Positions 1 through 52,681 of a DNA stretch of 64,000 bases are shown piece by piece (within the stretch, counting starts at the first letter, position 1; each line of letters begins with the position of its first letter). The stretch is from a virus. The translations under genes were made by a program, and so were the position numbers. Location of the stretch: positions 96,001 to 160,000 of the IMG/VR virus record IMGVR_UViG_3300030329_005082; one strand, 5' to 3'. Under the pieces are notes generated by a model, which ran no database searches, had not been told where the DNA came from, and saw only the letters and a program-made list of their open reading frames with translations.

Positions 1-2556
1 CAGTTGTGCATATGGTCTTTTGCTGCCAAAGATCTTATTTTTGGAAGCGCGATCAACAATATTCTTTGTCCAATGCCAGCCGTAAATACCAGCAGGAGTA
101 TTGTATTTAGTCCCTGGGTTGATGCCTACCTTTTGCACATCTGTGAAACTTACTAAAAAATTAGGGTCTCCAATCGCATTCATGATAGCGTCCCGATCAG
201 GATTGGAACTTATTTTAAGCTCTTCTTCTAGAACCTCTTTGATGAGGCTCCTTATTAGGCTGACAGTTTTAGACTCATTCTTTCCTGGGAGGTTTTTGTA
301 CTGTGGGTCATCCTTGGACAGGAGTGGCTGCTTTGTTTCAAATTCTTTGACTATTATGTCCCATTGTTTTTGGACCAATTTCTCAATTACATCAACGTGT
401 TCGTCAAAGTAAGTAAGGAACGTCATGTTCTGTAGGATTTGTTTTTCGCTAGTACTAGGCTCAAAAGCAATAACAACTGCACCCATGGCTTTATAGGTCG
501 GAGCGTTACCACTATATTGCGGGCTCGCAAATGTCTCTGGGTACAGATAGAATTTTATTGAATCTAGCGCATTAAGAGCGGGGGTTACGTCTTCTTTTTC
601 TTTTTCCGGAAGTCCAGCCATGGGAAGCTCTAATTGCTTGTGGGCAGCTTGAGCAGCATCCATAATCTCATCTGATAGAGAATTGATCATAGGCTTGGAG
701 TGTACAGGAGCTAGTTGTACCCCTCTCTTACGCAAGTAGATTGTTGACTTCATATTCTCCCAGTCACGAAGACTCCAGCCGAAAACATCTGCCATTGTTG
801 GAGACTGTGCATATTCAAGTGGTTTTTCTGAGTTACCAGAAGCATCTTTACGGGGCCCTGGGACTGGATAATTGTCTAGCTCAAAGAAAGCTGCGACTGT
901 CAATACACCGGCTCTTGTAAGAGGGGCATCTACTTTAAAGTTCTTTAGTTGTTTGCCAGCGATGATTTCTTCTTCTTCGTCAGTTGTGTCCAGAAGCTCT
1001 CCATAAGGAGTCTCTTGCATCCAGCCATCTTCCATCATAGAGTTGATAATGGCTTCCTTGACTTCATCATAAGACTCAACGACATTGGAAACATCTTCTA
1101 TGAGTTCTCGGGCTCCATCAAGTTGTAATCCCCATGATTCTATCTTTCCGAAAATACGCAATATAGCCTTACCAGTGACACTGCGTTGAATGCCAGCATC
1201 CCAATCTTCTATGTGAGCATCAGGTACATACCACTCGCTATCTTCGTAAGCAGCCTCGGCTAAGCTGGCTAAAGTTCTTAGGGGCTCCAAGCGATTGAGA
1301 GCCTGAAAGGCTTCTTTTTCGTCTTTGGCTCCAACCATTGGGGCTTTTATCATCCCCTCTTCAAGGTAAAAATCAAACTCAAAGTCAATAGACACATTGA
1401 CTTCTGGCATCTCATTCCATTCGTCCCAGTCAACACTTATATTTGACCTAACATCTTGGTGATCTAAATATGAATGCTCTAGGTCTAGAATTGCATTCCT
1501 GGCTTCATCAACAATTTGTTCAATCCGATCTTCGCCAACAAAATCAATATCATCTTCGTCACCAGATACATCAACTGAATCAGAAGGTCCATACATCTCT
1601 AGTGCATCGGAGAGTTCTATGTTTTCCATGCCGATCAAATTATTAAACATGGTGTGTTCAGAACTGTCAGAATATGAACCACCTCTGCGAACAAAGTCTC
1701 CAAGCCATAACTTCTCGGAGAAGACGGGATGGCTCTTCTGAATATCTCTTGCCCAGGCAATAACAGTATTCAAGAAACCAGGGACAGGCTTACCATAGAT
1801 CCGAGTCTCAGGCACGAGTAGTGCTAGCGGTTTGCCTTGGGTTGCTAGTTTTGGATTATCTAAGCGACGAAGGCGAACACGAGCGATGGGCCTGATACCA
1901 GAAACGCCACGGTCGCGATCTGCAAATAATTCATGGTCGTCAAGATGTTCCTCTGCTTTTTTATAATCGTCGCCATCAATAAGATAAGCGATAGCACCGG
2001 CACGCATAGCATCAGCAATTGCACACTTGAAATAATCATGACCCTCTGAGTGGCATGATGTGATTCCTTCTTGTCCAAAGTCTGACATTCTCAGAACGTC
2101 TACTGGATGCTGAGAAATCACAACAGCATATTTGGTATCTAATACGTCCGGATTGCCGAGGAAGTTTGCTTGGAACTTGTTCCACCACTTTTGAACTTTT
2201 TCAGGAAGCTCTTTGCCAATGGTTTTTCCAAGTCTTGTTTTTCTTTCCCTTTTTCCGACACGGGTTTCAATTTCTTGAGTTGCGGTGCCGTCTTCAAGGT
2301 TGACTTGAATGCCCTTGGCTGCCAAAGGCGTGACAATATAATCGTAAAAATTCTGGATTTCTTCATTATCGGAAGCCATCATAGGAATCAAGACACGCTC
2401 TTTGCCGCCAAAGACAGGAGACATTTCCGACTGTTCTAAATCTTTGGCAGCGTCTACGACATAATCGTAAACCTCTGAACTAATCTCATCTAACCTACGG
2501 AATGGTTCTCTCTGGTCAGCTAAATACTGATTCCAGCTATGGAGCAAATCTTTCAT
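1..2556 (-). CDS. Large (>852 aa) multidomain hypothetical protein, probable internal head protein; runs off the left end and is absent from the ORF track
   Basis: ATG at 2556 after GAGG. I translated ~2556-1980 and 300-1 with no in-frame stop: MKDLLHSWNQYLADQREPFRRLDEISS...ISQHPVDVLRMSD...SCHSEG...SLIRSLIKEVLEEE...VGINPGTKYNTPAGIYGW. The middle was not fully translated. Confidence 0.85.
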   Translation of the reverse strand, partial: MKDLLHSWNQYLADQREPFRRLDEISSEVYDYVVDAAKDLEQSEMSPVFGGKERVLIPMMASDNEEIQNFYDYIVTPLAAKGIQVNLEDGTATQEIETRVGKRERKTRLGKTIGKELPEKVQKWWNKFQANFLGNPDVLDTKYAVVISQHPVDVLRMSDFGQEGITSCHSEGHDYFKCAIADAMRAGAIAYLIDGDDYKKAEEHLDDHELFADRDRGVSGIRPIARVRLRRLDNPKLATQGKPLALLVPETRIYGKPVPGFLNTVIAWARDIQKSHPVFSEKLWLGDFVRRGGSYSDSSEHTMFNNLIGMENIELSDALEMYGPSDSVDVSGDEDDIDFVGEDRIEQIVDEARNAILDLEHSYLDHQDVRSNISVDWDEWNEMPEVNVSIDFEFDFYLEEGMIKAPMVGAKDEKEAFQALNRLEPLRTLASLAEAAYEDSEWYVPDAHIEDWDAGIQRSVTGKAILRIFGKIESWGLQLDGARELIEDVSNVVESYDEVKEAIINSMMEDGWMQETPYGELLDTTDEEEEIIAGKQLKNFKVDAPLTRAGVLTVAAFFELDNYPVPGPRKDASGNSEKPLEYAQSPTMADVFGWSLRDWENMKSTIYLRKRGVQLAPVHSKPMINSLSDEIMDAAQAAHKQLELPMAGLPEKEKEDVTPALNALDSIKFYLYPETFASPQYSGNAPTYKAMGAVVIAFEPSTSEKQILQNMTFLTYFDEHVDVIEKLVQKQWDIIVKEFETKQPLLSKDDPQYKNLPGKNESKTVSLIRSLIKEVLEEELKISSNPDRDAIMNAIGDPNFLVSFTDVQKVGINPGTKYNTPAGIYGWHWTKNIVDRASKNKIFGSKRPYAQL

Positions 2557-4176: not shown

Positions 4177-4620
4177 TTATTTATCTTTTTTATTGCGAGG
4201 CATGTCACGACGGGCATTTTTTTTGCTTTGCATTTCCAATTCGTAACGCTCTCTGGCTTTTCGTAAGATATCATCGTTCTGTTGCTGCTGTCTTGCTTCT
4301 TCTTCTTCATCTTCAGGAGTTACTTCGGCTGGTACTGGCCAAGCTGGCTCTTCTTTGTTTCCTGGCGGTAAACCTTCTTCAACCATGCTTATGAGGTCTT
4401 CTAGTTTGTTTTGAACATATTTTGCTAAACCAAAGGCATCTGTACTCACATCATCTGCTAATGGACTTCCGGGTTTACGGGCTTCACCAAGAGACTCCAG
4501 GGCTTTCAATAAATGACCTAGTGCCTCACTGTTGCTGCCGTAACTGCCACCTTTAGGGCGGGTAAGTCCGCCAACTTCTTCTCTGATGATTTTTGCTAGT
4601 TGTGATTTTGTAATCTTCAT
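4177..4620 (-). CDS. Hypothetical protein with N-terminal MKITKSQLAKIIREE tag
   Basis: Start moved from the track TTG to ATG 4620 (GAGG upstream); N-terminus shared with the neighbour, bodies unrelated. Confidence 0.75.
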   Translation of the reverse strand: MKITKSQLAKIIREEVGGLTRPKGGSYGSNSEALGHLLKALESLGEARKPGSPLADDVSTDAFGLAKYVQNKLEDLISMVEEGLPPGNKEEPAWPVPAEVTPEDEEEEARQQQQNDDILRKARERYELEMQSKKNARRDMPRNKKDK

Positions 4621-4631
4621 TTTGTTTGCCC

Positions 4632-4973
4632 TCAATCTCGCTGTCGGCGGCTTACAATATTTTTAGCCGTCAGTTGCGCTAAGTCAATTCTATCAACACC
4701 GGAAAGTTCGGTCAGTCCATTGTCTTCTAGGTATGACCGTACTAAATTTTGTATTTCTGAATTTCTCATTAGCATGTGTAAAACATTGTTTTTTAGAGCC
4801 TCTTCGTCAGTGCCGCCAGGGAAGGACTCGCCCCTCCAAGATTTCCCGGTGATATGGCCCCCTAGTTGGTGGGCTAGTTTCACCAGATCATCATATCTAT
4901 CAGAAACACCGATTTGGTGATGCCGAATTTCTTCTCTAATGATTTGTCGTAGTTGAGACTTGGTGATTTTCAT
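4632..4973 (-). CDS. Hypothetical protein with N-terminal MKITKSQLRQIIREE tag
   Basis: Start moved to ATG 4973 (GGAGGG SD). Confidence 0.75.
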   Translation of the reverse strand: MKITKSQLRQIIREEIRHHQIGVSDRYDDLVKLAHQLGGHITGKSWRGESFPGGTDEEALKNNVLHMLMRNSEIQNLVRSYLEDNGLTELSGVDRIDLAQLTAKNIVSRRQRD

Positions 4974-4994
4974 TACTTTACCCTCCGGGTACAA

Positions 4995-5000
4995 TAAATA
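4995..5000 (-). promoter_or_regulatory. Putative late-promoter box (CTATTTAT)
   Basis: TANTTA motif recurring upstream of many genes in gene orientation. Confidence 0.5.
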
Positions 5001-5005
5001 GTATG

Positions 5006-5586: not shown

Positions 5587-6780
5587 CTACAGGTCAAGCT
5601 TTAGTTTAAATGTGTATTCGTCAATCTCTTTTTTCATGACGGGGTTCGCAAGCTTTGCTACGCCAATAAGATTTTTGTCTTCGTCAAAGATGCCGATCTG
5701 CGTGATGAAAGTTTGCTTTTGAAACTCATCTTCAAAATCACAGTATTGACTTTCTATAGTATTCTTGATAACAAGTTGACGTGGTTCTATATAGCCCTGG
5801 CTGCCGGTTATGGTTAGTGATCGCCAATCACCATTTGAAGAACTCAACCAAGTTGGGTTTGTTGAGTTGTTTAGTTGTCCTGGCTGGGCTGTTGCAAACA
5901 TAGTCATCGTTGGAATCTTTTGTGTACCTTTAAAGGTCACCATGCTAAGACTTGCCGTTGGGAATCCGCCTGCACTACTTGTGCCAGTATACGTCCCGAA
6001 ATAGGTCCATTTAGGATTGACGTTTGTGGCTGCATTGCCAGTCCCAAGATAATCATCATATGAAGTGGTGTTGATATTTGCGGAAGAAGTTAACAGAATA
6101 AACCCTTCATTATACAAAACAACACCAACAATTGACCCACTAGTTGCACCCATTGTTGAAATAAGTTCGCCATTACGCCGAGAGTCTACTGCTTGAGCCA
6201 TCAAAGACCCTGTATAGTAAAACTTAAGATCTACTGAACCTTTCTCAATTCCAGACTCAAAGAAGATGGAAGGAATCTCTATCATGTTCACGTTGCCGTG
6301 ATCATACGCATCGGTATATTCATAACTGTCGCTAATATAACGATAGTAGTTCATTGTGTTTTGCAAGGCTATTAGCTTCTTGCGGTTAGTTACGAAAGCG
6401 TTTTTCTGTGCTTCTGTTCCCGCCGGAAACGGGTTAGTCGTTGTGTGAAAATATTGACGACTCAAGGAAGCTGTCAAGGGATAAGACCCTGTGATCATTT
6501 CGCCGGGTTCCATGTTTTCATATGAGGCAGTTGTTACATTTGGAAAAGATAACCAAAACCCATCTTTGATAATAAATGGGTAGATCAGTTGTTGAACAGT
6601 ACCGTCGCGATCAACATTATACTCGTATAAACTAATAGAACCTGTGGGAATGTTTCTTCCCATGTTTCTATCATTGTTGATATAGGCTGATCCGCTATAA
6701 AAGACAAATTCATATTCCGGACGGGTAACCATCCGATTTATGAATATATCGTCTTGACCGAATTCGTGGAGGTATGACAT
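5587..6780 (-). CDS. Virion structural (baseplate/tail-associated) protein
   Basis: C-terminal ITQIGIFDEDKNLIGVAKLANP motif typical of tail-collar/baseplate-attachment domains; paralog of 6792-7868. Confidence 0.6.
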   Translation of the reverse strand: MSYLHEFGQDDIFINRMVTRPEYEFVFYSGSAYINNDRNMGRNIPTGSISLYEYNVDRDGTVQQLIYPFIIKDGFWLSFPNVTTASYENMEPGEMITGSYPLTASLSRQYFHTTTNPFPAGTEAQKNAFVTNRKKLIALQNTMNYYRYISDSYEYTDAYDHGNVNMIEIPSIFFESGIEKGSVDLKFYYTGSLMAQAVDSRRNGELISTMGATSGSIVGVVLYNEGFILLTSSANINTTSYDDYLGTGNAATNVNPKWTYFGTYTGTSSAGGFPTASLSMVTFKGTQKIPTMTMFATAQPGQLNNSTNPTWLSSSNGDWRSLTITGSQGYIEPRQLVIKNTIESQYCDFEDEFQKQTFITQIGIFDEDKNLIGVAKLANPVMKKEIDEYTFKLKLDL

Positions 6781-6791
6781 GCAGCCTCCCG

Positions 6792-7868
6792 TTAGTAATC
6801 TAGTCTAACCCTAAGAGTGTACTCGTCTGCTGGAGTCTTCTTTAGAGGCTCGCTCAATTTGCCGACAGCCAACAACTCATTGTTTGCTCCATAGAGACCA
6901 ACAGTTGTGATGTAGGAGACTGGATCATCCGTACTCACATCTTTGACTCTAATCTTGCTAGAGTTTAGGTAAGTTGGGTTACTGCTGTAATTGAACTCAT
7001 TAGATCCTGCACGGCAGAAGTAAATTGTTGAGTTTAGTTCGGTTGTGTTGTTAAAGCTGACATTGCGTACTCTGCGACGAAGTGCGTCGCAGCTAGCACT
7101 GATTGCGCCAGAGACCATGAGTTGTGTGGAATTCTGTGCAGCAGGATTCATAGGTCTAGCGGCAGTAGCGATTGGAGTATTGAACACAGAAGACGTAACA
7201 ACGGCAATACCAGCTTGATAGAATACTAGACCAGCAGCAACTCCTGTTGGCTCTCCATCACTAGAGGCAGCCCATAAGACGTTATATTCGCCTGCTGGTG
7301 AGTTTGTCAAAGCATTAGTTGCATTTGTATCAGTTAGAGTAATTAATTCATCGCCTATTGTGGCCGGTGTCAGATCGCTACCAGCATTTAATACTAGCGA
7401 GAACCCGCCGCCGTTGACCTTTTGAATCTCATCCTTTGTGAGGAGTCTGGCAAAATTGATGAAATAAACTCCATTCATTCTACTAGAGGCATCAGAAGTA
7501 CCAAAAGCACCAGAAACATCAAATCTCTGAATATTGCCGTCTGAGTCATACCCACACAACATTTGGGCCATTTCATTGTAAATATCGTTTTTCTGATTGA
7601 GTTGTGTAGGGGAAAGAACTTCACCACCGGCTATTCCAGAATATAAACCAACAGTCAAATCTAGAATGTGGTTTGCTGATGAACTTAGATAAGGGTAATC
7701 ATAAACTGATTGGAACATTCCGTGGGAATAATTCTTTACGTTTTCTTCTGCTCCGAAAGTACCATAGGTTCCGGACAAGATTGTTCCTGTAAGAGGAATT
7801 GCTTCATGAAGCTTTGTTCGGTTCTGTTGAACATCTTCGCTTAGTAGTGTCTTAAAACTCGTTGCCAT
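6792..7868 (-). CDS. Virion structural (baseplate/tail-associated) protein
   Basis: C-terminal ITTVGLYGANNELLAVGKLSEPLKK...LRVRLDY. Confidence 0.6.
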   Translation of the reverse strand: MATSFKTLLSEDVQQNRTKLHEAIPLTGTILSGTYGTFGAEENVKNYSHGMFQSVYDYPYLSSSANHILDLTVGLYSGIAGGEVLSPTQLNQKNDIYNEMAQMLCGYDSDGNIQRFDVSGAFGTSDASSRMNGVYFINFARLLTKDEIQKVNGGGFSLVLNAGSDLTPATIGDELITLTDTNATNALTNSPAGEYNVLWAASSDGEPTGVAAGLVFYQAGIAVVTSSVFNTPIATAARPMNPAAQNSTQLMVSGAISASCDALRRRVRNVSFNNTTELNSTIYFCRAGSNEFNYSSNPTYLNSSKIRVKDVSTDDPVSYITTVGLYGANNELLAVGKLSEPLKKTPADEYTLRVRLDY

Positions 7869-37790: not shown

Positions 37791-38480
37791 TCACTTAATT
37801 TCTCCTTCGTTCCACTTACTCTTGAAAACTCTGAACTTCTCTCTCATCTTGTTTAGACAACTGACTATTTGTTTTGTATTCAGACCTGTAATCTCTCTCA
37901 TATACAGATATATTGCCTTTTTGTTGAAAATTTCTATTTGGTCCACGTTATTCATAAGGGTCAAAATTGCATTTAGGACTTTTTCCTCATTGGGTTTTAG
38001 GTTTGGGTTGTGCCAGCTTTTTATTTCTACCAACAAAAAGTGCCAAAATTCTCTCTCTTCTTGTTCATCAAACAGATCTTCATTTTCGCCGTTAGATACA
38101 GCCTCAATCTCACGAATCATTGAATCGTATTCAATCTCGCGACGGTTCTTTTTGGTCTGTTGTTTAGCTTTGTGAGTGAACCAGTTTTTTGTGACTACTG
38201 AAAAATAGGAAAATGCTTTTGTGCCCTGGGTTGGGTCAAATTTGCCGAGGATTGTTGTCAACCAGATTTTACAATCTTCCTTGAGATAATCAATATTCTC
38301 TAGAGAAGTAAACTTATAAGTATAAACAATCTTAGTCACAAGTTCGTCAAAAGCTGGTTGGATATGTTCTACATATAGTTCTGTTCTTTTAGATAAGCTA
38401 TCAGTGGCACAATAATCAATAATTGCCTGTTCTGTAACTTTTGTAAAATAATGATTTTTCTTTTTAGCTTTTCTAGCCAT
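37791..38480 (-). CDS. Phage sigma-factor-like protein (gp55/sigma70 region-2-like)
   Basis: KFDPTQGTKAFSYFSVVTKNW resembles sigma region 2.3-2.4; C-terminal helical NKKAIYLYMREITGL; start moved to ATG 38480 after GGAGAGG. Confidence 0.65.
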   Translation of the reverse strand: MARKAKKKNHYFTKVTEQAIIDYCATDSLSKRTELYVEHIQPAFDELVTKIVYTYKFTSLENIDYLKEDCKIWLTTILGKFDPTQGTKAFSYFSVVTKNWFTHKAKQQTKKNRREIEYDSMIREIEAVSNGENEDLFDEQEEREFWHFLLVEIKSWHNPNLKPNEEKVLNAILTLMNNVDQIEIFNKKAIYLYMREITGLNTKQIVSCLNKMREKFRVFKSKWNEGEIK

Positions 38481-38769
38481 CATCCTCTCCATATAACATG
38501 CTGGTGTTTATTTGGATGAAATCCTCCACATCACCACTCAAGTCTCTTGTGTGTTCTAAGAGTCCCTGCAAGGTTTGATCGCCATAAAATGTTTCTAACC
38601 CATATACTCTGGTTAGATGTTCTTTATAAGAGTCAATTGCGTCTTGTAGTGAGTTGACATCATCTGTTGTCATTTTTACAAATTTTATTAGATTCCGGCA
38701 ATACCAGATTAAAAAACCGTTAGACAATAATGAGAGAACTAAGAGCGAAACAAGAATTATATCCGTCAT
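38473..38769 (-). CDS. Small membrane-anchored coiled-coil protein
   Basis: Hydrophobic residues 4-22 followed by an amphipathic helix. Confidence 0.65.
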   Translation of the reverse strand: MTDIILVSLLVLSLLSNGFLIWYCRNLIKFVKMTTDDVNSLQDAIDSYKEHLTRVYGLETFYGDQTLQGLLEHTRDLSGDVEDFIQINTSMLYGEDDG

Positions 38770-49378: not shown

Positions 49379-52300
49379 TTATCTTCGTCTTTGTCGTTTA
49401 GGACGATTTACTTTGGGTTTCGTGCTTTTTTTGCGTCTTTTTTTCGGGAATGAAGCAGGGGCATACCCTGGAGATCCGAGAGTTGAACCAGGCGCAAAAC
49501 CATTTCCTCCGCCCTCAACAGCACCGCCGGCCATGGTTGCCATTTCCTCTATAGCAGCATCTATTTCAGAATCTATCTGATCAGTTGGTTTAAAGATCCT
49601 CCAGATCTCTTCGCCGTCAACACTGTCAGGCATATAAGATAAAAACTCATCTTTTTTATTCAAATTGATAAAGTCGCGAATATCTTCAGCACTAAACACC
49701 TGTCCTTCTGAGGAGGTTACGGGTTCTTCTTCAATTTCTTCTACTGATATGCCGGGGTTGTGTCTTTCTGCATATGATTTGGCATTTTGGAAACGGGTGT
49801 CACCCTCATCCTTACTACTCTTGATTAATAATATTGTGTCTTGTGGTCTTGATTTGACAGGATCAGCCAAAAATTCATATACTGTTGTAACGGGACTCCT
49901 GTAGTCTGCAATCTCTACGCTTATTTTGGGAGACGCATCAGAAGATGATAAGAACTTAGACCATATTTCAAGAGATTGTTCAGCAGACACTTCTGGTTTA
50001 TCTACAGGGCTAATCAAAACCATCACATTATCTACATCTGATCTCTTTGCTACTTGATTTACAAATTCGTAATGACCTTTGTGTGGCGGCTTGAACTTGC
50101 CAGGAAATAGAGCAATTCTTTTACCTTCTTCTTCAACAAGTGGTTGAACAGATTCATTGCGTTGACCTGGCGCATCAGAGTCTTGAGAGATCTGTTGAGA
50201 CATCTCGTCAGCAACAACTTTAGATTCTTCAATTGCTTTTTGCCCGGCACCAATAGCCTGGCTTCTATCTTGATAAGTAAAATAATCATTTACATTTTCA
50301 GACAATTTAGATGTTGCTTCAAAAACCCTCTGCAAATTATCAGATAAGAATTCCATATATTGTTCAGCAACATCAACAACTCTTTCTGTGGTAATTGGCA
50401 GCGTACCTAATGTTTCATAATCTAAGCTACTAGAAACTGCCTTCAATTGTTGAGGACTGATAGCCCACTGGGTGCCGCCTGCACGCTCTAATAACAACCC
50501 CTCTGAGATGAGTCTTTTATTTTCTTCTACAGAATAAATCCTGTGGGCTGCTAGCTGTTGCGGCTCTATATCGGTACCATCTGGTAGCTCATCAGAGACA
50601 GTGACGGTTTCATCGGGTGCAGGTGGTGTCTTCTTCCTGTTTCTATACCCTTTTGTCATTTGTAAGAGTTTATATTTTTCCGGCCAATTGGAATCACCTG
50701 TAAGACTGTTGAGTTTCTTGATAGAACTGGACGGGGTGCGAGCAATTTCATAAGGAAGTGCAAATAATTGGGCGTCCTTGGTTGTACCACCTTTTGCAGA
50801 TGCAATAATTGCATTTATAAAGTTATCTCTTGTGAAAGTGAATTTTTCTAAAGCAATATTATCGCCATCTTTTCTGGCAACGATATATACCATTTGTCCA
50901 AACTCTTCTAAAGAATCAACAAGATTGGTATAACTTCCTTCAATCTTAGTTTTTTGATTTAATAATTTGAGACTGATAGGAACTGGCTGTGTGTCTTCAA
51001 GTTCTGAAAAGGCAATAAGATCTTGGATAGGTAAATTCCCTTTTTCACTTACTTCGGCTTCTTGTTTTCCACGAAACAATGCTGACAAGAACCCTTCAAA
51101 GACAAACCCAGCAGAGGCAGAATTAAAGCTCCTGATGACTGCTGATAAAGATTCTAACAAAATAAGAGTGCTGATAATTCTTCGTGGCGAGCGAATACCG
51201 CCGCGAGGATTATTAATACTATCATTTAAAAACTGAAGCTTTTCTTGGATAGTTGCGCCACCACCAACAGTGTCAAAGATCTTTTGAATTTGCTTTCTTT
51301 CCATAGACTCAGGGTCACCCCAAGCCTCAGTTGGTACAAATTTAGGAAGTGAGAGAACAAATTGTTTTGCTTTTTCCCTCTTAATATTTCCCTCATCTTC
51401 TGTTAGGATATTTCTAGGACGGGAAATACTTTCATTTGCAACGGCTGGGGAAGTTCTTCCACCAAATTTGAACATTCCAAGAATCTGATTTAGAGGTGCA
51501 AAATTTCCAGAAAACTTATAAGTGTGACCATCATAATCAAAAACAACAGCCTCAACAGGAGTGGTTATTTGTGAAAAGTCCTTAATCTTATTCAGGTGCC
51601 TTTGCATCACCTCCATGGCAGCCGGGTTTTCTGGACCCATTGCTGTCAATTCTCTGACTGCTGTTGCTAATTCATCTCTTAGGCGAATTACTTCTTTATC
51701 TGTGTCTGCAATGAAAACACTATCAAGTCCCTTTAATAACTCTACAGCAAAATCATGAATAACTATTTCAAGTGGTTCAATCGCTTGTTGTAACAAGGAT
51801 TTTTTACTGTTGATTACATTATTTAGATCCTGAAGATCTTGTGGGTTCAGACCTTTCTTAAGGGCTCTTAATCCAATATTACCGGGTAATTTTAAGAGAT
51901 ATTTTACGATCCCATCTTTCATATTATCTGGTAATTCTGTATCAAGACCGTGAAACAAACGAGAATATAAGTAATCAGTCATAGTGGAATCGTCGGATAA
52001 TCCATTTTGAGATATTTCACGATTTATCTTCTCTATAGAAGACTTAAGGACTTCTTCATCTTCCATTTTTTGAAGTTGTATAATAGCCTTTCTGGCAAGA
52101 TTGAACCTATTGTCAGATAGTTGATCTTGCATTCTTTCTAAAGAGTTATCAATTATTTCCAATGATCCGTTTGGAATAGGACGCCGTTCTCCGGTTTCTT
52201 TATCAAAACGAAAATGACCCACTCCATGTATCTTGAGAGTCTTATTATCATATTTTATAACATTTACAGACCCTGGGTCGTTAGAGTCGCCTTCGGTGCC

Positions 52301-52681
52301 AGGGTCCATAATCTCAGCGTTATACCAAATATTTGCGTCAGATCCAAAGACTTTTTCTTTTTCCTCATCAGACAGCGCCTCAACAGCTTTTTCAAATGCT
52401 GCAAATCCGCCTGTAAAAGCCTGAGTCAAACCACCTCGTCCTGCAAATTTTGTAGCTAGACCTTCAGCATCTAACCCTCCTGACATAAGGTTCCCCTTAT
52501 TTCTGGCTCCTTTTGCTTTTCCTTCCGGAATAGAATAAGAAAGAAAAAGATTTTGCCCGTCTACCTTCTCTTCGGCAGTAAGTTCTGCGTCAGCAGCAGC
52601 CTTCAGAATCTCTTTCATTTTTGCAAAAGTTAGACTACGGTTATCGTAGAGGTGGTCCATGTGACCTGCAACGCCACCCAT
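49379..52681 (-). CDS. 1100-aa fusion: ATP-dependent ligase-like domain + PD-(D/E)XK-like domain + HxGH nucleotidyltransferase
   Basis: EKVDG (I), NAE (III), EAVVF (IV), YKF (V); GFVFE...PIQD...ISLK; FPGKFKPPHKGH...SAEDIR. Confidence 0.65.
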   Translation of the reverse strand: MGGVAGHMDHLYDNRSLTFAKMKEILKAAADAELTAEEKVDGQNLFLSYSIPEGKAKGARNKGNLMSGGLDAEGLATKFAGRGGLTQAFTGGFAAFEKAVEALSDEEKEKVFGSDANIWYNAEIMDPGTEGDSNDPGSVNVIKYDNKTLKIHGVGHFRFDKETGERRPIPNGSLEIIDNSLERMQDQLSDNRFNLARKAIIQLQKMEDEEVLKSSIEKINREISQNGLSDDSTMTDYLYSRLFHGLDTELPDNMKDGIVKYLLKLPGNIGLRALKKGLNPQDLQDLNNVINSKKSLLQQAIEPLEIVIHDFAVELLKGLDSVFIADTDKEVIRLRDELATAVRELTAMGPENPAAMEVMQRHLNKIKDFSQITTPVEAVVFDYDGHTYKFSGNFAPLNQILGMFKFGGRTSPAVANESISRPRNILTEDEGNIKREKAKQFVLSLPKFVPTEAWGDPESMERKQIQKIFDTVGGGATIQEKLQFLNDSINNPRGGIRSPRRIISTLILLESLSAVIRSFNSASAGFVFEGFLSALFRGKQEAEVSEKGNLPIQDLIAFSELEDTQPVPISLKLLNQKTKIEGSYTNLVDSLEEFGQMVYIVARKDGDNIALEKFTFTRDNFINAIIASAKGGTTKDAQLFALPYEIARTPSSSIKKLNSLTGDSNWPEKYKLLQMTKGYRNRKKTPPAPDETVTVSDELPDGTDIEPQQLAAHRIYSVEENKRLISEGLLLERAGGTQWAISPQQLKAVSSSLDYETLGTLPITTERVVDVAEQYMEFLSDNLQRVFEATSKLSENVNDYFTYQDRSQAIGAGQKAIEESKVVADEMSQQISQDSDAPGQRNESVQPLVEEEGKRIALFPGKFKPPHKGHYEFVNQVAKRSDVDNVMVLISPVDKPEVSAEQSLEIWSKFLSSSDASPKISVEIADYRSPVTTVYEFLADPVKSRPQDTILLIKSSKDEGDTRFQNAKSYAERHNPGISVEEIEEEPVTSSEGQVFSAEDIRDFINLNKKDEFLSYMPDSVDGEEIWRIFKPTDQIDSEIDAAIEEMATMAGGAVEGGGNGFAPGSTLGSPGYAPASFPKKRRKKSTKPKVNRPKRQRRR

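Follow-up and report, generated by a model that had tools for sequence, protein, structure and literature searches.

Candidate T4-type capsid-targeting tags at the N-termini of diverse proteins in an uncultured T4-related phage

Introduction

In phage T4, the internal proteins IPI-III, along with Alt and gp24, carry an N-terminal capsid-targeting sequence (CTS), which is removed by the prohead protease gp21. The adjacent genes ipII and ipIII carry one common 10-residue version of this tag. The T4 internal proteins are diverse defence proteins which share only the conserved targeting sequence (PMC3012670), and Alt is a packaged ADP-ribosyltransferase whose propeptide is cleaved by gp21; further, the targeting sequence has been used to package foreign proteins (PMC5694885). 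Additional systems invite comparison. In phage SPN3US, the paralogues gp53 and gp54 possess an identical 15-residue N-terminus with K-S-K-L, which is cut at x-x-E (PMC5694885), while the polyvalent proteins, found in phages and conjugative elements, are predicted to travel with the phage DNA (PMC5512222, Iyer et al. 2017).

The stretch of DNA considered here, henceforth the window, comprises 64,000 nucleotides (bases 96001-160000) of a 178,630-bp IMG/VR virus record with a completeness rating of 98%, i.e., the approximately 178.6-kb genome of an uncultured T4-related phage. Two classes of N-terminal tag, termed A and B, occur in this genome, and they recall the T4 CTS in several ways: they begin at residue 1 (10-20 residues in T4, 14 here), end in I/L-x-E, and are found on otherwise unrelated proteins, including the products of adjacent genes, as in the case of ipII and ipIII. 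As in T4, the genome also encodes a protease of the gp21 family, and the maturation site of its gp23-type capsid protein (predicted in the present case) shows this motif too; the candidate cargo is diverse and quickly turned over, with a weak match to the ADP-ribosyltransferase (ART) fold paralleling Alt. However, tag A lacks sequence similarity to the T4 tag and tag B shares with it only aromatic-x-x-F-[I/L]-x-E; about 26 genes bear one of two classes of tag, with a relative reaching at least 34 tagged genes, as against a handful in T4; and packaging and cleavage are, in the present case, predictions.

The resemblance to the polyvalent proteins lies in the tag-B bodies, which include GNAT and NUDIX domains, a portion of the PHROG family that bears the annotation 'ParB C-terminal domain' and a weak ART-PolyVal match, and in the prediction that the tagged cargo is likewise delivered with the DNA. 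Polyvalent proteins, however, combine 2-15 effector domains in one polypeptide, whereas here most domains lie in small genes of their own, every one of them tagged; also unlike polyvalent proteins, no zincin-like processing peptidase was seen in the tagged proteins. The inner-body and ejection proteins of phiKZ and SPN3US are comparable as head proteins with N-terminal propeptides, theirs being removed by a gp21-related protease, but those propeptides belong to a distinct lineage, mostly exceed 100 residues and have S/A/G at P3, as against 14 residues and I/L/V at P3 here. A loose similarity connects the N-terminus of SPN3US gp53 and gp54 with tag A and with the N-terminus of a head-module protein described below, perhaps as the trace of an older signal common to them. 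Finally, purely as an analogy, the cargo-loading peptides of encapsulins are short portable peptides that send unrelated cargo into an HK97-fold shell; these differ in being usually C-terminal and uncleaved, and in involving neither a virus nor DNA.

Results and Discussion

A pair of adjacent tagged genes in the window

Two adjacent genes of the window (genes 1 and 2 in Table 1) share the 15-residue N-terminus M-K-I-T-K-S-Q-L-x-x-I-I-R-E-E, while their bodies show no mutual similarity in BLASTP comparisons with the first 20 residues cut off. The preliminary description of the window had singled out this pair as having a shared tag on unrelated bodies, and both the BLASTP result and the profile scores of the two tags (33.0 and 34.1 bits) bear it out. 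The genes start at ATG 4973 (gene 2) and ATG 4620 (gene 1), each preceded by a GGAGG-like site, and their start methionines coincide with those of their database homologues. Upstream TTG starts were considered for both genes and rejected, as the ATGs preceded by ribosome-binding sites and the starts of the homologues favour ATG.

Both proteins are sparsely represented among 5.8 billion proteins: gene 2 has only three homologues, all three of which retain the tag, and gene 1 has a single one, with 68% identity and the tag likewise kept. Neither protein belongs to a family in Pfam or PHROGs. The AF2 model of the 113-aa product of gene 2, in which the tag is predicted as helical, is of too low quality for fold searching (pLDDT 47); the ESM Atlas provided no useful lead for this protein or for the approximately 140-aa head-module protein discussed below. 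At the nucleotide level, megablast with 25 kb against cultured phages returned no match, and tblastn with a 20-residue tag query is statistically powerless. The genomic surroundings of the pair are replication and repair genes rather than head genes.

Table 1. Positions of the tagged genes and associated features; coordinates are those of the window unless given as genome
Feature	Position	Strand	Remarks
Tag-A gene 1	4177-4620	minus	147 aa; Gly-rich linker after tag, acidic stretch in body; tag profile 33.0 bits
Tag A of gene 1, residues 1-14, ending I-R-E	4579-4620	minus	
Tag-A gene 2	4632-4973	minus	113 aa; near-orphan body, conserved basic C-terminal tail; tag profile 34.1 bits
Tag A of gene 2, residues 1-14, ending I-R-E	4932-4973	minus	I-x-E from residue 12
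1868-aa protein, first 852 aa in window	1-2556	minus	divergent tag B at N-terminus, 27.1 bits at genome 98556 = window 2556
Tag-B genes, 9-11, with enzyme-like bodies	genome 89045-98556 and 172338-174256; window 2515-2556		
Peptidase_S77 (gp21-type prohead protease)	genome 70969-71571		PF03420, 1.3e-29; PHROG 207 head maturation protease, 4.7e-53
Tag-A gene directly upstream of S77 protease	genome 71618-71965		
CTATTTAT box, gene 2	4994-5001	minus	21 nt upstream of ATG 4973; heads two-gene unit; putative late-type promoter
CTATTTAT box, 1868-aa gene	2589-2596 (genome 98596)	minus	40 nt upstream of the 1868-aa tag-B gene

Extent, position and conservation of the two tags

A 16-column profile of tag A, built from genome coordinates, was scanned against the six-frame translation of the whole genome and recovered 15 strong matches of 21-35 bits, as against a best score of 8.5 bits on reversed sequence; all 15 begin at the initiator methionine of coding-strand ORFs of 74-160 aa. 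The same kind of scan with tag B, which has a W-R-K-F-L-K-E core, recovered 9 strong and 2 weak matches, every one of them N-terminal, with control scores of 6.1 bits at most. Thus, the strong copies of both tags lie at the initiator methionine in 24 of 24 cases, and the conserved length is 14-16 residues. About 26 proteins of the genome bear tag A or B on mutually unrelated bodies: an all-against-all BLASTP comparison of the bodies with the first 20 residues removed produced one weak match only.

The shared motif is far in excess of chance expectation, but the further examples that the preliminary description gave within the window are not upheld. The supposedly related segments (49358, 52922, 46742 and within 49379-52681) either gave no match or scored no more than 0.1 bits. 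Likewise, no internal copy exists in the ORF at 1-2556, which instead carries a divergent tag B at its own N-terminus. The majority of the real copies are located outside the window, at genome positions 31.6, 71.9, 80-87, 89-98 and 171-175 kb.

Inspection of the tags reveals [ILV]-x-E at residues 12-14 in 15 of 15 tag-A copies and 7 of 9 tag-B copies (at 13-15 in one copy of each tag), as compared with 8% of other ORFs; hence, two dissimilar tags share their length and their end. The divergent tag-B copies, namely those of the 1868-aa protein and of the gene at genome 91070, are without the motif at these residues. Additionally, residues 5-7 of tag B are L-T-E, the same tripeptide as at the T4 gp23 cut site.

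The conserved unit could in principle be the DNA or mRNA, serving either as a joint at which recombination exchanges cassettes or as an enhancer of translation initiation, with the peptide as a by-product. The differing cassettes found at fixed slots in relatives (see below) would accord with this proposal, as would the two T4 tag copies that are identical in DNA. However, where residues are identical, the codon is identical at only 51% of the positions: Arg9 is encoded by CGA, AGA, CGG and AGG, and Leu8 and Thr4 by four codons each. Further, the DNA upstream of the tags is conserved no further than the ribosome-binding site, and the motif retains its peptide form across distant genomes. Since codons vary freely at conserved residues, selection acts on the peptide, and, as judged from these alignments, the conservation of the tags is at the peptide level and not at that of the DNA. 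The nucleic-acid explanation is thus largely refuted and stands very little chance of being correct.

The prohead protease, the predicted capsid maturation site and the head module

Looking for a gp21-like prohead protease elsewhere in the genome, as the preliminary description had proposed, uncovered a clear Peptidase_S77 member that co-occurs with the tag. Its alignment with T4 gp21 shows conservation of the His, Ser and Asp columns, and its neighbours are the genes for the portal, a scaffold-like protein, a gp23-like capsid protein, the sheath and the tube; no HK97-type protease (PF04586) is encoded in the genome. The known maturation site of T4 gp23, L-T-E/A (the slash marking the cut), aligns with L-K-E/S of the capsid protein encoded here, and the same site is [LIV]-[RKS]-E in 11 relatives. 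This alignment of the gp23 site with [LIV]-x-E in the capsid proteins suggests that the T4-type specificity is conserved and, at the level of sequence, the ends of the tags and the predicted maturation site of the capsid protein display one and the same motif. In tag A, Glu14 is mostly followed by a further Glu, whereas small residues occupy this position at the capsid sites here and at T4 sites; accordingly, a cut at the exact Glu14 bond is uncertain.

The tags are also connected to head genes by position. One tag-A gene lies directly upstream of the S77 protease gene (Table 1), and tag-A genes occur among the portal, protease and capsid genes of four relatives (G026, G003, G016 and G010). 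Just after the protease is encoded a head-module protein of about 140 aa, which is conserved in all relatives and represented by 474 cluster representatives. Strong conservation marks the N-terminus of this protein, which looks like tag A with two residues left out, the tag-A profile scoring it weakly, at 5-11 bits in ten relatives against 2.1 for the control. A parallel is again provided by T4, whose tag resembles the N-terminus of the scaffold protein gp22. The head-morphogenesis module additionally contains a homologue of the ribosomal protein bS21 (genome 70238-70528; PHROG 21469, 9.6e-7), whose gene recurs at this position in relatives as well as in Microcystis phage Mel-JY01.

Distribution across viruses and linkage to the protease

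The exact tag-A pattern is present in at least 119 stretches of IMG/VR, whereas among 185,579 prokaryote species genomes it was found in only 5 contigs, all from MAGs. One contig labelled as the Methylococcaceae MAG TMED69 (NHDW01000006.1; 305,838 bp) has several tag-A copies and is probably a large phage contig mis-binned into a bacterial MAG. The proposed extension of the profile scan from this genome to relatives located tag A in each of the 13 genomes tested, at 4-34 copies per genome. The richest, G008, has at least 34 tag-A genes, many in one tandem array of about 11 kb (G008:C1:146-157 kb). Tag B is confined to closer relatives. The tag profiles found no match in T4, Syn9, P-SSM2, HTVC008M, RM378 or Mel-JY01, while a shortened form of the tag is seen in Flavobacterium phage vB_FspM_immuto and variants in a 484-kb uncultured phage. 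In vB_FspM_immuto, which is cultured and also encodes an S77 protease, the shortened tag heads two genes (MW353176, near 102842 and 113150) and contains I-K-E or I-R-K-E. Literature searches with motif strings, and for capsid-targeting sequences in metagenomic T4-like phages, found no prior account within their incomplete coverage.

Among 26 other tag-bearing IMG/VR contigs, S77 is encoded in 21, including all four with at least 90% completeness, and the remaining five are 27-52% fragments in which the capsid gene is also missing; IMG/VR may over-represent head-gene fragments, which would inflate this linkage. In the four large near-complete genomes, the tags are likewise accompanied by genes for ClpP and GroEL, and thus co-occurrence by itself does not single out the head protease. 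This raises an alternative by which the shared N-terminal helix serves some other purpose within the cell, either as a handle by which a phage chaperone or protease (GroEL/ES, ClpP, FtsH) times folding or degradation, or as a helix through which the tagged proteins all dock onto a single partner of host or phage origin. The present genome does encode both ClpP and GroEL, and the location of the window pair among replication and repair genes would be in line with such a role. However, these two genes lie at genome 13.7-19 kb, far from the main tag arrays, and the alternative leaves unexplained the fixed [ILV]-x-E in two unrelated tags, its match to the capsid site, the tag genes within head modules and the resemblance to the head-module protein. 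It is further countered by G026, which has 11 tags and S77 and lacks ClpP and GroEL, although the completeness estimate of this genome may be wrong. Taken together, an intracellular handle appears unlikely. G026 merits description in itself: with only 37 kb it is rated 97% complete, and it carries (G026:C1:18900-37016) a 1437-aa portal-containing ORF, S77, bS21 and the 11 tag-A genes; this may be either a fragment with a wrong completeness rating or a relative of exceptionally small size.

Cassette turnover and the nature of the tagged proteins

Comparison with G001, the closest complete relative included, indicates that the tagged genes behave as exchangeable cassettes. The RuvC-like, nucleotidase and primase genes which flank the window pair are 76-88% identical between the two genomes, whereas the slot of the pair itself is occupied in G001 by one different gene. 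Most genes in the tagged arrays of G001 match those of the present genome across the tag only, with few bodies shared. Close to the pair are two adjacent paralogous genes with similar C-terminal ends (window 5587-6780, 397 aa, and 6792-7868, 358 aa), which are kept in G001; they have no family match and are probably structural.

The bodies following tag A are small orphan proteins, and searches of Pfam and PHROGs with ten further tag-A proteins likewise returned nothing significant. By contrast, those following tag B fall into different families or folds, namely GNAT, NUDIX, the ART fold and a nucleotidyltransferase-like type, the matches of the last two being weak, whereas those to GNAT, NUDIX and the 'ParB C-terminal domain' PHROG are clear. 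The tag-B GNAT matches an internal stretch of a PHROG profile of 3925 positions, and two tag-B proteins match positions 333-464 of the 472 in the PHROG annotated 'ParB C-terminal domain'. The ART-PolyVal score of a tag-B body is 21.5 bits, below the cut-off of 31.2. In structure comparisons, the nearest solved folds of a 131-aa tag-B protein all belong to the ADP-ribosyltransferase superfamily (Tpt1/KptA, DarT, Arr and toxin A chains), and its predicted model thus points, albeit weakly (best Foldseek E 5.8e-4, TM 0.47), to an ART fold. While the small tagged proteins have at most one recognisable domain each, the 1868-aa protein might itself be polyvalent, as the sole such candidate among those tagged; in it, Pfam finds only a NUDIX domain, situated further downstream, beyond the window, and a search of PHROGs contributes a single further family, of unknown function, that follows the NUDIX.

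The cargo repertoire bears on a further alternative, namely that these are ordinary fast-evolving paralogues in which duplication has left the N-terminus alone recognisable, with the tag being no transferable signal. The tagged genes do form tandem arrays and, as the tag-A bodies are without family matches, a common origin is possible for these bodies. For tag B, however, this proposal has to contend with bodies of distinct families and folds, and with one body that is found both tagged and untagged: its homologues P0009 and P0010 are without the tag and start just past the tag and Gly linker, although these could be gene-calling truncations, and P0011-13 have the same tag B in front of other bodies. 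The AF2 model of the tagged version has a well-folded body (pLDDT 79), with the tag as a detached, low-confidence helix. Further, even under common descent, 14 residues conserved at the peptide level beside unalignable bodies would still demand a function for the tag. Divergent paralogy therefore appears quite improbable.

A promoter-like element upstream of tagged genes

The 8-mer CTATTTAT has 17 copies on the coding strand and 1 on the opposite strand. The sheath, scaffold-like and other head genes are preceded by its 7-mer core at a distance of 40-70 nt, and this core also heads most of the tagged transcription units, the window pair included (Table 1). From this placement we infer that the box is a late promoter. 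In the same genome, the N-terminus of a 233-aa protein (window 37791-38492; genome 133791-134492) resembles, by eye, gp55, the sigma factor for late transcription in T4; this would agree with a late-promoter role of the strand-specific CTATTTAT box.

A capsid-targeting interpretation

The reading best accommodating the above, and one that is held to be reasonably probable, is that the tags are 14-residue N-terminal capsid-targeting propeptides of the T4 type, with packaging, cleavage and injection all predicted from the sequences. Under this model, the tagged genes would be transcribed together with the late structural genes. The amphipathic helix of the tag would then bind the assembling prohead core, as the similar N-terminus of the head-module protein would also do, so that the cargo would be enclosed upon closure of the gp23-like shell. 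The gp21-type serine protease would next cleave after Glu14 of [I/L/V]-x-E, the short peptide would exit the head, and the mature cargo would remain in the head with the DNA and probably enter the next host alongside it. Tag A would be the carrier of small orphans, including both window genes, much like the T4 internal proteins, and tag B that of enzyme-like cargo, comparable to T4 Alt and to the domains of polyvalent proteins. The rapid turnover of the cassettes fits roles in host takeover or in countering host defences.

The portable label on diverse, swappable cargo envisaged in the preliminary description is accordingly supported in part, as an N-terminal label of the T4 head-loading kind on exchangeable proteins, by the I/L-x-E end, the tagged genes in head modules and the cargo that differs between close relatives, even though the additional examples it drew from the window were wrong. 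As to its view of the tag as a general delivery system and an engineering tool, both the principle and such use are established in T4 (PMC3012670, PMC5694885), so that this would not be a new kind of system. The novelty lies in the tag sequences, in the presence of two classes of tag, in how many genes of one genome bear a tag, in the enzyme cargo and in the spread through an uncultured T4-related group.

Conclusions

In its broadest form, the proposal is that a large uncultured group of T4-related phages possesses a portable loading code with at least two tag classes, by which dozens of swapped effectors would be placed in each virion as 'unbundled' polyvalent proteins, amounting to the largest capsid-delivered arsenals known; this is offered tentatively, as a possibility of slightly less than even standing. 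In this form of the proposal, the two tags might differ in where they load their cargo, in how many copies or in when it is released, and possession of a tag would be enough to pick out a protein in a metagenome as a candidate injected effector. Since the principle and its engineering use are known from T4, the gain would be in scope and annotation rather than in concept. If the capsid-targeting interpretation is true, a 14-residue motif would flag hundreds of candidate head-packaged, and probably injected, proteins in uncultured phages, and loading tags would be gained for the engineering of non-model phages. The proteins so flagged, which are otherwise unannotated orphans, would be the first actors in the host. 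It would also mean that domains familiar from the giant polyvalent proteins can be delivered singly, and that the internal-protein strategy of T4 is old, widespread and greatly expanded beyond the T-even phages.
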